A DNA stretch of 64,000 nucleotides from Candidatus Porifericomitaceae bacterium. Its GTDB lineage: Bacteria; Pseudomonadota; Gammaproteobacteria; Porifericomitales; Porifericomitaceae. Of this stretch, positions 42,656 through 50,108 are shown in pieces. Made by a program: the position numbers and the translations under genes. How positions within the stretch are numbered: position 1 is the first letter of the stretch; every line of letters starts with the position of its first letter. The notes under the pieces are model-generated. The model did no database searches. It saw only the letters and a list, made by a program, of their open reading frames with translations, and was not told where the DNA came from. The DNA is taken from contig OZ243038.1 of the NCBI GenBank assembly GCA_965212005.1, positions 1,760,096 through 1,824,095 of the forward strand. Reading direction: 5' to 3'.

Positions 42656-43298
42656 GCCGGTTAAGGATTCCCAGGGACAGATCCGGATCATGCCGCGCCG
42701 GGGGCTGGTGAGCGGATCGCTCGGTTCGGGCGTGAGAATTAGGGGTAAGGGCAACTCTACGGGGGTCAGGCAGTGCTTCGCGCTCCTACTCTTAAAGCGG
42801 GAGTTTTGGCGCTCGATTGCGGGCGGTTTTTCCTCCAGCGATCGTCTGAAGCGCCTGGGCCGGCTTCTGCTGGACGATGCCGAGACGGCGTTACAGGCAC
42901 TACAGGATGAAGTGACTGCAAAGGAGGGCGTCTACTTGCTGATCTGCCTGGATGACTTGGCGCGCGTGGAAGAAATGTCGCGCTTGACCGGCCTGGAGGT
43001 TCCGTTGGAAGTTAAGACTTTCCCGTTCGACGGAGACGTGCACGGGGTAGTGATTTCGGTTCGGCACTGGGCCGCGCAAGGAGAGGGCACGGGCAGTTAC
43101 CTGGTGCGCCCGCTGTCTAAAACCGGGAGCCACGTCCAGGCCTGGCGGATTACGGACCAGGCATTCGAGGCTTCGCTGCTGGCGCGCGTGCTGCCCTTTA
43201 CTTCCTCACTCGATCGGCCCTTGAAAAATGCCAGGTTGGTTTATCAATCCGATTGGGTCTCCTACCTCAGCATCTACGAACTGTCTCCGCACAGGTAG
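42621..43298 (+). CDS. Hypothetical protein, probably a C-terminal gene fragment (weak STT3/PglB-like pattern)
   Basis: Protein-like only from about 42790; no good start or RBS; ends RLVYQS...SIYEL. Confidence 0.4.
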   Translation: MPFRRAYRSSSEPVKDSQGQIRIMPRRGLVSGSLGSGVRIRGKGNSTGVRQCFALLLLKREFWRSIAGGFSSSDRLKRLGRLLLDDAETALQALQDEVTAKEGVYLLICLDDLARVEEMSRLTGLEVPLEVKTFPFDGDVHGVVISVRHWAAQGEGTGSYLVRPLSKTGSHVQAWRITDQAFEASLLARVLPFTSSLDRPLKNARLVYQSDWVSYLSIYELSPHR

Positions 43299-43557
43299 CT
43301 TGCAGGGCCGTCTGCATAACGGCTGGGGCAGATTGGCGGCGCGGCAGTGTTGGCAGCTCGGCTCCGTTTATTTTAATATGTGGTCCGGAAAATTGCCTGG
43401 CCTGAGCCGAGCAACGGACAATTCCATCAGTGGTTAAATACGATCGGGGAAGCGCGTTTTTGCTGCGTTGCCTGGTGATATGCGGATGGGCAGAGCGGAC
43501 GATGGTTTCCTTAACAGAGCATGAGACGGCGATAAGCCGCGGAAAGATGAGCAGACT

Positions 43558-44190
43558 ATGAAACTATACGATTTTACACCGGCCCCGAACCCGCGGCGGG
43601 TTCGGATTTTCGCCAGCGAAAAGGGCTTGCAACTGCCCACCACGCAGGTAAATTTGCGTGCGCGCGAGCAATTTTCTGCCGCCTTTCGGGCGATCAATCC
43701 ATACTGCACGGTGCCGGTGCTGGAGCGTGCCTCCGGCGAGTACATCTGCGGGGCCAGGGCTATCTGCGGCTACCTGGAGGCTTGCCATCCTGAGCCTCCG
43801 TTGCTTGGCGGTGATGCCTGGGAACAGGCACAGGTGGCCTCGTGGACCGGTTTCGTGGAAGAAATGGGCATGGCCGCGGCGGCCGAAGTGTACCGGAACA
43901 CGGCGGAAGCGTTTACCAATCGTTCCCTTCCCGGCCCGGTGCCTTGTGAACAGATCCCGGCGCTTGCCGAGCGCGGCCGCAAACGCTGGGCATCCTTCCT
44001 CGGCATACTCGGAGACCGCCTGGAGCAGAGCCGCTACGTGGGCGGCGCCCATTTCAGCCTGGCGGACATCACGGCCTGGGTATGCTTGGATTTCTCCGCC
44101 TGGTCCGAGTTGCCCGGGGTCAGCGCGGCCTCTCCCGGGCTGCAGCGCTGGTATGAAGGTCTCTGTGCCCGCCCCAGTGCCGGGGCCTGA
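43558..44190 (+). CDS. Glutathione S-transferase family protein
   Basis: KLYDFTPAPNPRRVRIF, INPYCTVPVLE, AICGYLE, FSLADIT. Confidence 0.9.
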   Translation: MKLYDFTPAPNPRRVRIFASEKGLQLPTTQVNLRAREQFSAAFRAINPYCTVPVLERASGEYICGARAICGYLEACHPEPPLLGGDAWEQAQVASWTGFVEEMGMAAAAEVYRNTAEAFTNRSLPGPVPCEQIPALAERGRKRWASFLGILGDRLEQSRYVGGAHFSLADITAWVCLDFSAWSELPGVSAASPGLQRWYEGLCARPSAGA

Positions 44191-44216
44191 GCGGGCTGCC
44201 GGATCGGTCCAGAACC

Positions 44217-44331
44217 CCACTGTCCCGCCGTTTTCAGGCCCGTGCCGGGCCAGGTCAGTTGCTCCGGCACCTTAGCCGAACTGCCCATCTCCCCCATAAA
44301 AAAGGCATGGACAAAAAGGCCGCTTGATCTA
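44217..44331 (+). repeat. Diverged copy of the region upstream of tRNA-Ala/23S (partner 44999-45073 and 45159-45189)
   Basis: 75-bp block with 6 mismatches by manual alignment, plus AAAAGGCATGGACAA.AGGCCGCTT.ATCTA block. Confidence 0.9.
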
Positions 44332-44574
44332 TTATTCTATCAATAACGCAGGATGCTGAAGGCTAGCGTGCTCCGTGTCGCAACATTGTAGCGTGCACGG
44401 GGCCGGAGGTTTGCAGCCTGATATTTTTATTGAGTTTTATTATAGGGAGGCGTAGATTATGTTTTTCATATTTTTCATATTTAGGATAAGCATACGGATT
44501 ACTTACAAGAAGTGTTGGTAATGTTGAGGATATAGTACATTAGTATAGTGTAAATTTTAATAATAATTATAAAC

Positions 44575-44609
44575 AAAAGCCCTTGATCATTGATCAAGGG
44601 CTTTTTTTT
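44575..44609 (+). terminator. Intrinsic terminator, near-identical copy of the post-5S terminator
   Basis: AAAAGCCCTTGATCA-T-TGATCAAGGGC followed by T8. Confidence 0.9.
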
Positions 44610-44649
44610 GCTCGGGCATTGTGACTTACGTTTGTTCCCATCTTGCTGG

Positions 44650-44970
44650 TTGACGTTTGATCGGTTGCGGCTCTCACCCGATGACGGCACGGAAATCGCA
44701 TTGACCGTGGCGGTTGTGCTGAGTGCGGAGGCGGCTAATGAGGTGAGCTTCACTGTCTCCACTGCTGATGGCACCGCTGTTGCCCCAGATGCTACATTGC
44801 CGTGATCGACCGGACGCTTTGGTATTGCTGCTGGAGACACGAGCGTTAGCATGGTTAATGACGGCATGGGGTGTGGGGAGAAGAGCAGTTTACCGTGACC
44901 CTGAATGCCGATAGTTTGCCTGTCAGGATCAGTTTGGGTCCGCTAGCCACCGCGACGGTGCGTATCGCTG
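44650..44970 (+). pseudogene. Calx-beta domain remnant
   Basis: LTVAVVLS..AANEVSFTVSTADGTAVAPD and EEQFTVTLN...SLG..ATATVRI in broken frames; paralogous to 49572-49843. Confidence 0.75.
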
Positions 44971-45091
44971 TTTGGAGCCCGCGCATCCGTACAGATCGCC
45001 ACTGCCCCGCCGTTTTCAGGCCCGTGCTGGGCCAGGGCAGTTGTTCCGGCACCTTGGCCAAACTGCCCATCTCTCAATATAAATCCTGCTA

Positions 45092-45104
45092 TATCAATAA
45101 CTTG
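45092..45104 (+). promoter_or_regulatory. Putative IHF site
   Basis: TATCAA-TAAC-TTG matches WATCAANNNNTTR. Confidence 0.4.
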
Positions 45105-45166
45105 CCTTGAAAAAACCGGAGCACGCCGGTGGCGTTCCGGGAGAGCGTCCCGGGAGGGAAAAGGCA

Positions 45167-45195
45167 TGGACAAGAGGCCGCTTTATCTATATGAT
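45167..45195 (+). promoter_or_regulatory. Putative sigma70 promoter for tRNA-Ala-23S-5S
   Basis: TGGACA-N17-TATGAT, 16 nt before tRNA-Ala; boxA TGTTCTTTAACA at 45346-45357. Confidence 0.65.
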
Positions 45196-45211
45196 GCAGG
45201 GTCTTAGGAGC

Positions 45212-45287
45212 GGGGCCATAGCTCAGCTGGCAGAGCACCTGCTTTGCAAGCAGGAGGTCGGCGGTTCGAGCCCGCCTGGCTCCACCA
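45212..45287 (+). tRNA. tRNA-Ala (TGC)
   Basis: GGGGCCATAGCTCAG...TTTGCAA...GGTTCGAG...GGCTCCACCA; G3-U70. Confidence 0.97.
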
Positions 45288-45475
45288 GAGGTTCCTGTTT
45301 TCCGGCGGCTTGATTGTTGCGGGGAACGGTTCCCCTGGGTTGCTGTGTTCTTTAACATTAATGATCTTGTCAAGACGCCGATCAGGTGTATCTGCCTTGT
45401 GCGGAGTACCTGCATCGGCGGAGTTGCATCGCTCAGTCAGCGAGCATGCGATCCCGGGATATCTTGGGGTTGCAT

Positions 45476-48404
<2,929 letters not shown>

Positions 48405-48501
48405 TGCAACCTCAAGGTTTTAGAGGCGGGTGTCTGCCCGTTTCCCTGAACTTACCTTGAGGCGACTTGAAGCGATGCAGCTTTGACAAGATTATCCGAT
48501 T

Positions 48502-48619
48502 TGCCTGGTGGCAATAGCGAGTTGGAACCACCCGATACCATTCCGAACTCGGAAGTGAAACGACTCTGCGCCGATGATAGTGTGGGATTTGCCCATGCGA
48601 AAGCAGGACACTGCCAGGC
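48502..48619 (+). rRNA. rrf: 5S rRNA
   Basis: TGCCTGGTGGC...CCGAACTCGGAAGTGAAA...GCCAGGC. Confidence 0.97.
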
Positions 48620-48626
48620 TCTTCAT

Positions 48627-48661
48627 AAAAGCCCTTGATCAATGATCAAGGGCTTTTTTTT
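48627..48661 (+). terminator. Intrinsic terminator after 5S rRNA
   Basis: AAAAGCCCTTGATCA-A-TGATCAAGGGC followed by T8. Confidence 0.92.
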
Positions 48662-49329
48662 GCCTGGCTATTGTGACTCGCGTTCTTCCCTGCCTTGCCG
48701 ATAGACGTTCGATTCTCAGCGGCGCTCACCCGATGACGGCGTGGACATCGAATGAGAAGATTCGTAAGGAAGTTCCGGACACAATTTTCGCAGGCCGGGA
48801 AAGTCAGCCCTGATTGTATGGCTTATGGATGGAAAGGAATTTCCGATCGGCCAATATACGGTTTGGCGAATGGCCGAATGCCGCAGGATAACGCCTTCCT
48901 TAATGTGGCGTAAGCTGCAGGTTTCCGTACCAGGGAAAAACAAAGTAATCCATTGATTCTTATGTATATTTTATGGATATTTCTTAAAAGGATAATTCTA
49001 CCAAACTAAATAAAACATATAGGAAGGAGTATCAGGAAGGAAAAGAGGTGATCCCTTTGTTTGGGAATACTCTCGGCGTAACTCCTTGCGCAGGCAAGTT
49101 GAGTTTCAATCGTTGCCTGGTTGCGGTAGCCGTTACATTGAGTGCGCTCTGCTTGATCCCTTCCTCTTCTTTAGCCCAGGCATCAGGCAATCTCCCCCGG
49201 CTGTAGACTGGTCGAGGCGTGCGAGGTTTACTCTCGACTGCGATGAGAATGAACACGAGGATGACTGTGACGTCAGCGCCCACCCGCGGACAAAGATGGA
49301 TACTGTCCGGTCCGGCAGCAGCGGGCTAT

Positions 49330-50108
49330 TCCGTTCAATGCTCACCGTGGGCTTCACGCCGGACAACTGGGATCGGCCACAAACGGTATGGACGCTGGTA
49401 CACTTGGCACTGGCGCTGCGTTTCTGGTTACCCTCATTTGGGAACTATCGTTCGGAAGACTCGCGCTACGCCGCTCTCAACACCTCGGTTACATTTGAAG
49501 TATCCGGCGTTGGAAGGTCAACGCTTGCTTTCTCCGGGGCGACCTGCGAGGTAACTGAGGATGCAGGCACACTGAGGGTGCCGGTTCCGTCGAGTACGGC
49601 GACGGTCAGTTACGTGAGCTGTACCGTATCCACTGCTGACGGTAGCGCCGTTGCGCCGAACGACTATAGCGCCGTGAGCGGACCAGCTCTTGGTATTCCG
49701 GTCGGAGCCACCAGCGCCTCCGCGGCAATGCCGATGATGCAATGGTGGAGGGAGAAGAGCAGTGTACCGTGACCCTGAACGCCGGCAGTTTGCCGGCCCG
49801 GATCAGTTTGGGTACTTCGGCTACCGCAACGGTGCGTATGCTGCCCAGACGGTCGCCCTGGATGGGGAAGCCCTGTATAATGCCAATGCTTGTTAGTTGC
49901 CATGATGCAGGTATCTTGGGGGCACCGATTATAGGTGATGCAGTGGCTTGGAGCTCGCGCATCATGGAACATGGAACGAGGTATGAATGGCTTGTATGAT
50001 TCGGTATTCAACGGTCGGGGAAGTATGCCGCCTCGCGGAGGCACGCCGCTCAGCGACGATGAGATTCGCGCGGTCGTGGATTACCTGGTGAGGGAATCGT
50101 CGCCATGA
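49330..50108 (+). pseudogene. Decayed Calx-beta + cytochrome c5 fusion gene
   Basis: FTPDNWDRPQTV, Calx-beta (FSGATCEVTEDAG, STADGSAVAPNDY, EGEEQCTVTL), then DGEALY, (C)VSCH, GAPIIGD..AW..R, MPPRGG..LSDDEIRAVVDYL across several frameshifts. Confidence 0.8.

Follow-up and report, generated by a model that had tools for sequence, protein, structure and literature searches.

A probable decayed tandem copy of a tRNA-Ala-23S-5S unit with recognisable promoter- and terminator-like ends

How does a stretch of DNA come to carry the promoter and the terminator of an rRNA unit beside the real unit, with the RNA genes gone from between them, and could such a shell still have a use? The question arises for the window analysed here, a 64,000-nt stretch from the genome of a Candidatus Porifericomitaceae bacterium, which is assembled as a single contig (2,535,744 bp, 59% GC). 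The best matches of its IlvC protein, found mostly in Gammaproteobacteria records, reach no more than 69% identity, and the organism is therefore without a close named relative. Whole-genome BLAST finds one copy each of the 16S, 23S and 5S genes. A single, unlinked rRNA set of this kind should not tolerate a second copy of one of its halves, because the output of 23S and 5S would then exceed that of 16S. The locus looks like the record of just such an event, in which a 23S-5S unit was duplicated, its RNA genes were removed, and a promoter and a terminator were left behind.

A split rRNA set and the blocks beside it

All features lie on the + strand unless stated otherwise. One half of the rRNA set consists of the 16S rRNA gene (39214-40757, Rfam) and tRNA-Ile (41127-41204, ARAGORN/Rfam), and the other half of tRNA-Ala (45212-45287, ARAGORN/Rfam), 23S (45476-48405, Rfam) and 5S (48504-48619, Rfam). 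The end of the 16S gene at 40757 and the start of the 23S gene at 45476 are 4.7 kb apart and enclose three protein genes, assigned from the ORF list and Pfam: a porin O/P gene (41375-42655), an ORF without a Pfam family (42621-43298) and a glutathione S-transferase (GST) gene (43558-44190). The middle one of these comprises 225 codons, lies between the porin and GST genes and has no Pfam family at E ≤0.01. Brewer et al. are said to call rRNA genes unlinked when 16S and 23S lie more than 1.5 kb apart, a distance that is exceeded here. In another genome of the same family (G001), tRNA-Ala-23S also has its own promoter, with unrelated genes upstream and the 16S gene absent there. The unlinking therefore looks like a trait of the family, and since G001 shows the same split between 16S and 23S, it is older than the duplication described below. 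By eye, the promoter in G001 (L014 11981-12009, contig C48) is near-consensus, and the DNA upstream of it has protein-length ORFs on the opposite strand.

Immediately upstream of the real promoter lies a series of blocks, termed the ghost here, which repeats parts of the real unit. The real promoter P (44982-45195) is made up of an upstream module (44982-45073), an 82-nt segment (45074-45155) and a core, TGGACA-17-TATGAT (45167-45195). A copy of the upstream module stands at 44200-44291 and is identical to it at 81/92 positions; the earlier note had begun the ghost promoter P' at 44217, where identity does climb to 69/75, but the match itself begins at 44200. It is followed by the ghost core promoter (44299-44335), which comprises an A-tract, the -35 box TGGACA (44308-44313), a 16-nt spacer and the -10 box TATTAT (44330-44335), and of which 44299-44329 aligns with 45156-45185 at 25/28 positions plus 5 gap letters. 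After an intervening filler comes the ghost terminator T' (44575-44613), with its stem-loop at 44575-44605, a 14-bp stem, a 3-nt loop and a run of eight T. The real terminator T, which together with its post-terminator stretch spans 48627-48753, has the same 14-bp stem, 3-nt loop and eight T, with its stem-loop at 48627-48657. The two stem-loops are identical at 30/31 positions, and the sole difference, already noticed as a single base in the earlier note, is at the centre of the loop. The likeness runs on past T' for 88 nt, close to the 90 bp claimed before, since the post-terminator stretch of the ghost (44614-44701) matches 48666-48753 at 66/87 positions.

The last blocks of the ghost derive from the gene that follows the real terminator. 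Its Calx-beta remnant (44702-44969) reads in two frames with stops present when translated; the portion 44702-44869 is identical to 49573-49743 at 115/165 positions, and the portion 44870-44969 to 49744-49843 at 83/99. At 44970-44987, a scrap of cytochrome c sequence matches 49945-49966 at 16/18 positions and passes directly into the start of the promoter module, and a few bases are common to both ends of this joint. On the real-unit side, three-frame translation and Pfam place a broken Calx-beta/cytochrome c gene at 49086-50108, in which Cytochrome_CBB3 is matched at 3.4e-07 and Calx-beta at 6.4e-06 (26.6 bits, just below the 27-bit cutoff). This gene is a pseudogene spread over three frames; it begins in the manner of a signal peptide, continues with a Calx-beta part and ends as a c-type cytochrome. 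A longer and intact relative of it, with the same Calx-beta region, occurs in a related genome (G003, L002). The first copy in the window thus holds a truncated Calx remnant and the second a fuller gene, which is also broken.

Repeat search, BLAST and pairwise alignment all find the ghost blocks to be colinear, in the same orientation and adjacent to the real unit on the same strand. The order proposed in the earlier note, P' followed by filler, T', Calx remnant and real unit, is borne out by these alignments with slight corrections of position, and so is its proposal of a tandem duplication, except that the duplicated unit includes tRNA-Ala as well. When every block is searched by BLAST, exactly two copies of each are found in the 2.54-Mb genome and no further ones, which answers the concern that the blocks might be repeats dispersed genome-wide. 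The junction at 44970-44987 joins the end of one unit to the start of the next and therefore supports a head-to-tail duplication of a unit of ~4,985 bp (44982 to ~49966). Relative to the real unit, the ghost lacks the 82 nt at 45074-45155, the 816 nt at 48755-49570 (3' of the post-terminator stretch), ~100 nt at 49848-49947 and the RNA genes, and it has 10 nt more at the -10 box.

A composite word, made of a 9-mer and an 8-mer separated by 3-4 bases, occurs only twice in the genome. At 38981-39001 it overlies the -35 region predicted for the 16S promoter, and at 45100-45121 it lies within those 82 nt of the real 23S promoter that have no counterpart in the ghost. Its local alignment is not significant against shuffles (74/1000); the word could be a control site common to both rRNA units, or it could be due to chance.

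Short-read contigs break at the T/T' hairpin, a repeat common to both copies, and for this reason the ghost might be taken for an assembly artefact, or for a member of a dispersed repeat family. Either is extremely unlikely. The stretch is present in four runs of two studies, none of them recorded as an RNA run. In X1, possibly the source sample, contigs covering 43400-44604 and 44576-45267 have 0 differences each; they enter T' from either side and break only at the shared hairpin. In X3, from the second study, contigs covering 44227-44349 (0 differences) and 44320-44604 (2 differences, 11 gap letters) bridge P', filler and T'. In addition to the exact count of two copies for every block, the copies differ from each other by 3-30%, which is not a product of collapse or mis-join. 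The possibility of an artefact, raised in the earlier note, was checked on short-read contigs from two studies, and these cover the ghost.

Based on the results presented above, the region is probably what decay has left of the first copy in an old tandem duplication of ~5 kb, the RNA genes of that copy having been replaced by unrelated DNA. In such a history, the duplicated unit would have begun with the promoter of tRNA-Ala-23S-5S and ended inside the Calx-beta/cytochrome c gene downstream, and a second 23S-5S unit beside one 16S gene would have left rRNA output unbalanced. The RNA-coding part of one copy would then have been lost, with 239 bp of AT-rich DNA, either foreign or scrambled, taking its place, and the deletions of 82, 816 and 100 nt in the ghost would have come later. 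The comparison with sister genomes that the earlier note had proposed was made with 60 relatives, and the promoter module and the filler were found in none of them. Only two matched anywhere, G003 in the Calx-beta stretch and G044 in a terminator-like hairpin. The three genomes of the same family among them are all fragmented, 0/3 have the promoter module or the filler, and no outgroup from before the duplication was found in this set. Exact-pattern scans, which perhaps left out the organism's own genome, gave 0 matches to the terminator hairpin in public genome contigs and 0 in metagenome contigs, and 0 matches to the core of the promoter module in metagenome contigs.

The filler and the loss of the RNA genes

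The filler (44336-44574) occupies the place of tRNA-Ala-23S-5S (about 45212-48620). Its length, 239 bp, is close to the 240 bp given in the earlier note, which had described it as largely AT-rich, but only the last 152 bp are so. The 5' part (44336-44422, 87 bp) has 56% GC and contains a hairpin at 44349-44420, with a predicted fold of -35.5 kcal/mol (z -2.85; 2/200 shuffles fold equally well). The 3' part (44423-44574, 152 bp) has 24% GC, with 5.9% C, 18.4% G, 42% T and 34% A. The depletion of C in the filler, with 9 C against 28 G, has a p of 0.016 against the local background. The stretch 44423-44574 is one of the 15 islands in the genome with ≤27% GC and the one among them with the strongest skew of G over C; its 150 nt of lowest GC hold 28 G and 8 C.

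By BLAST, the filler is unique in the genome. Plain local alignment to the real transcribed region gives a score that 10/100 shuffles equal, and the observed score is also reached by shuffles when the filler is aligned with the leader, tRNA-Ala and spacer (87/300), the 23S-5S spacer and 5S (249/300), tRNA-Ile and its flank (60/300) and the 16S leader (83/300). Rfam gives no rRNA or tRNA match at 44150-45211. An rRNA pseudogene was rejected as an identity for the filler, which in these comparisons has no detectable residual likeness to tRNA-Ala, 23S, 5S or the spacers. On the other hand, the Calx remnant, which is of the same age, has kept 70-84% identity and 57% GC. Since a remnant of equal age is well kept and the filler has no detectable likeness to rRNA, the filler is not the result of plain rRNA decay. 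These alignments show the RNA genes to have been replaced by unrelated DNA and not worn down. The earlier claim that the first copy had lost its RNA genes is right in that the genes are gone; it falls short in that mere loss or decay does not describe a place where 239 bp of other DNA now stand.

The limits of the replacement are close to those of the RNA genes. After the -10 box, homology to the real unit fades within ~20 nt (13/19 plus 4 gap letters), and the replacement spans from at most ~10 nt from the 5' end of tRNA-Ala to at most ~6 nt from the 3' end of 5S. These limits are tidier than a random deletion need be, and plain decay does not account for how strongly the filler is depleted in C; both points count against the explanation of the ghost as a relic. 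The replacement has spared just the expression signals, which may be taken as a hint of retained function. The C-poor and T-rich composition of the would-be non-template strand is what would be expected from a transcription-linked loss of cytosine, and is a hint in the same sense.

The same composition could be read in another way, namely that the filler descends from the transcribed DNA first present there, cut down by internal deletions and altered by a very fast, transcription-driven decay from GC to AT, with nothing inserted. The strand asymmetry in the 3' part has the sign expected for this, and the first ~20 nt past the promoter have the weak likeness to the real leader given above. However, alignment to the rRNA unit with GC-to-AT changes forgiven is not above shuffles (48/200 reach the observed score), nor is alignment in a purine/pyrimidine alphabet (44/200), and the rate of decay would have to be several-fold above that of the adjoining remnant. 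We consider this origin very unlikely, and replacement by unrelated DNA is the reading followed below. Searches with the filler gave no match in phages; among plasmids two records were matched, at the terminator end only.

Terminator, promoter and candidate transcript

As it now stands, the ghost would consist of a sigma-70-type promoter box close to the consensus and, ~240 nt further on, a perfect intrinsic terminator. T' is predicted to be an intrinsic (Rho-independent) terminator, as its hairpin contains G+C and is followed by a T run. The predicted fold of -21.4 kcal/mol (z -6.4) is equalled by 0/200 shuffles. A scan of both strands finds T' to be terminator-like on either of them, with an A-tract preceding the hairpin. 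The cores of T' and T are exact reverse complements of each other, such that a flipped palindrome would look the same as a point change. No antiterminator pairing of the kind found in a leader-peptide attenuator is predicted, the T' stem pairing only with itself, and a repeat search for partners of the T' arm returned only T' itself and T.

The earlier note had held that the terminator is far better conserved than its flanks, which would suggest that it is selected. The first part of this stands. The flanks of T' diverge by ~25%, and T' is better kept than the adjoining 87 nt (Fisher p 0.006) and than all neutral-looking blocks together (p 0.002). For the promoter module, the corresponding value is p 0.005 against the pooled blocks and p 0.27 against the better-kept half of the Calx remnant. 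These Fisher tests assume that both copies drift, whereas the real T and P are surely constrained. Under a model in which only the ghost drifts, at 12-16% per site, the probability of ≤1 change in the 31 nt of T' is 0.09-0.03, and that of ≤11 changes in the 92 nt of the promoter module is 0.53-0.18. Because the real T is constrained and drift of the ghost alone gives 0.03-0.09, selection on T' is just suggestive, which is the part of the earlier claim that weakens. The conservation of the promoter module lies within what drift of the ghost alone would give and leaves selection on P' unshown. Overall, this comparison makes a weak case for a selected ghost terminator and promoter.

T' could have been kept because it works as a terminator or insulator, stopping transcripts that start at P' or come out of the GST gene before they cross the remnant and reach the real 23S promoter; the RNA of the filler would then have no role of its own. 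T' is the first strong terminator-like site past the GST stop at 44190, and the other + strand sites, from 41561 to 43668, are short stems inside genes. The terminator-like form of T' on both strands and its 30/31 identity, set against the 66/87 of the adjoining stretch, agree with such a role. On the other hand, transcripts of the GST gene presumably entered the rRNA promoter harmlessly before the duplication, the good preservation of T' has the probability under ghost-only drift given above, and the termination of transcripts at T' is itself a prediction. A retained insulator is thus a reasonable possibility, although we would put it below even chances.

The cores of P' and P both score 10/12 in a consensus scan. 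Over the whole region scanned, 6 promoter sites were found against 5.4 in shuffles; as this is about the shuffle level, the match at P' is by itself weak evidence. Nevertheless, the hexamers of P' are spaced as in sigma-70-type promoters, for which 16-18 nt is usual, and P' is thus a predicted promoter. Its -10 box derives from a 10-nt insertion relative to P, by which the old -10 box was displaced and the spacing became 16 nt. That an insertion created a new -10 box at the right spacing hints at retained promoter function. The core GCATGGACA was found at 35 sites, and a -10 box at the proper distance is present only at P and P'; the core as a promoter word in common use was rejected, since only P and P' among the 35 sites have a suitably spaced -10 box. 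No signal of a folded RNA was detected in the 92-nt promoter module (z -0.37 and -0.53). A coding function of the module was also rejected, as six-frame translations of both copies gave no convincing frame.

If P' fires, it would give an RNA of ~270 nt (~44342 to ~44612) that ends at T', and T' would also stop transcripts of the GST gene before the real promoter. The whole candidate RNA has a predicted fold of -80.1 kcal/mol (z -4.35). The ORF scan finds a 20-codon ORF at 44459-44521 on the + strand, MFFIFFIFRISIRITYKKCW, whose ATG lies 8 nt after GGGAGG (44445-44450). The encoded peptide is rich in Phe and Ile, with three charged residues in mid-sequence. It has no paralogue in the organism's own genome, and none alike was found among the small ORFs led by a Shine-Dalgarno (SD) sequence in the other 14 most AT-rich islands. 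A search of Rfam with E up to 10 gave 23 matches, all under the gathering scores and most on the terminator, and the best of them are driven by the terminator, as is the case for ohsC (28.7 bits against a gathering score of 50).

It is therefore conceivable that P', filler and T' form a young, working gene, whose ~270-nt RNA acts as a small RNA or codes for the 20-residue peptide, for example a small membrane-active or toxin-like one. Several of the features described are in keeping with this: both hexamers are near consensus and the new -10 box is well spaced after the 10-nt insertion; the 5' hairpin is more stable than nearly all of its shuffles; GGGAGG precedes the ATG within a stretch of 24% GC; the predicted terminator is perfect; the C depletion and T excess on the would-be non-template strand have the direction that heavy transcription would produce; and the replacement leaves exactly the expression signals. 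However, homologues of the filler and of the peptide are absent from the organism's own genome, from the 60 relatives and from phages, the two plasmid matches concerning the terminator end only, and no Rfam match reaches its gathering score. Furthermore, 4/20 codons are ATA, a codon presumably rare at 59% GC, and the make-up of the peptide is that of a chance product of AT-rich DNA. The variation of the filler among close strains, described in the next section, also weighs against it. A young gene of this kind is unlikely. On present evidence the ghost appears to be a relic, and a new small gene is possible.

Related strains, known systems and meaning

The data of X3 and X4 bear on whether a product of the filler is conserved. 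In both, the GST gene is present with 5-8 differences in ~800 nt, and so are the 3' half of the ghost and the core of P with tRNA-Ala and the beginning of 23S (0 differences from 45159 on); a contig of X4 is identical from 45159 via tRNA-Ala into the 23S gene. Although the flanks are present, the depth on the filler is 8-27 against 42 on the GST gene in X3 and 0-3.6 against 50.7 in X4, that is, 0-27 against 42-51 over both. In two X3/X4 contigs a P-like stretch (45065-45192) leads to the terminator hairpin with ~248 unassigned nt in between, which is near the length of the filler, and in two further X3/X4 contigs a P copy is followed by 1.3-1.7 kb that do not match the start of tRNA-Ala/23S. 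The stretch 44978-45192 thus has three different right-hand neighbours in X3/X4: tRNA-Ala-23S, the hairpin after ~248 nt, and the 1.3-1.7 kb. From these contigs, the locus looks structurally variable among related strains, which seem to carry the ghost with another or much-changed filler; as the contigs come from mixed samples, this is a lead. A filler that seemingly differs among strains speaks against a conserved product.

The locus shares features with several known systems. The available text of the paper on unlinked rRNA genes reports how common the split between 16S and 23S is and attributes it to drift. The present genome resembles such systems in the 4.7 kb with protein genes between 16S and 23S and in a 23S-5S half with its own promoter, and it differs in carrying a decayed duplicate of one half, which was not found in that part of the paper; the terms 'duplicat' and 'remnant' have 0 occurrences there.

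Large tandem duplications that carry tRNA genes reportedly arise spontaneously in Pseudomonas fluorescens SBW25. Like tandem segmental duplications that decay afterwards, the locus has head-to-tail copies, an end-to-start junction with a few bases in common, where a gene is truncated, and one copy that has since suffered deletions. In contrast to them, the transcribed part has here been swapped for unrelated DNA with promoter and terminator still recognisable, and what was duplicated is the one 23S-5S set of the cell.

Type I toxin-antitoxin and small hydrophobic-ORF loci resemble it in that an AT-rich orphan stretch, flanked by a promoter and a strong terminator, holds a short ORF that is SD-led and has many hydrophobic residues. 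Here, however, the ohsC_RNA match cited above falls on the terminator, the peptide has no paralogues and carries its three charged residues in mid-sequence, and the antisense promoter-like site (44554-44527, 9/12) comes from a scan without excess over shuffles (6 versus 5.4). A type I toxin-antitoxin locus was rejected, all Rfam matches being below their gathering scores and no second copy of the peptide being found. De novo small genes from non-coding DNA are similar in that a short orphan ORF comes with ready-made expression signals, and different in that expression and benefit are putative here. Nothing fitting an rRNA-unit ghost of this kind was found among the listed matches of the literature searches. 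The process is an ordinary one, and the preserved shell of promoter and terminator is unusual.

That the shell is still the source of a useful RNA or peptide appears improbable from the evidence in hand. Somewhat bolder is the proposal that the purged rRNA shell, an rRNA-grade promoter with its terminator, now serves a young orphan gene as its expression cassette, a gene birth by the capture of rRNA signals, and this we regard as rather improbable. Under it, the ~270-nt RNA would carry the stable 5' hairpin and the SD-led 20-codon ORF, and the C depletion would be the footprint of heavy transcription. If the shell is silent, it would be a tidy example of ordinary genome decay only. In either case, the decayed first copy of a 23S-5S unit would offer a natural test of the rate at which strong promoters and terminators decay after losing their cargo, and of whether such shells may be re-used for new small genes.
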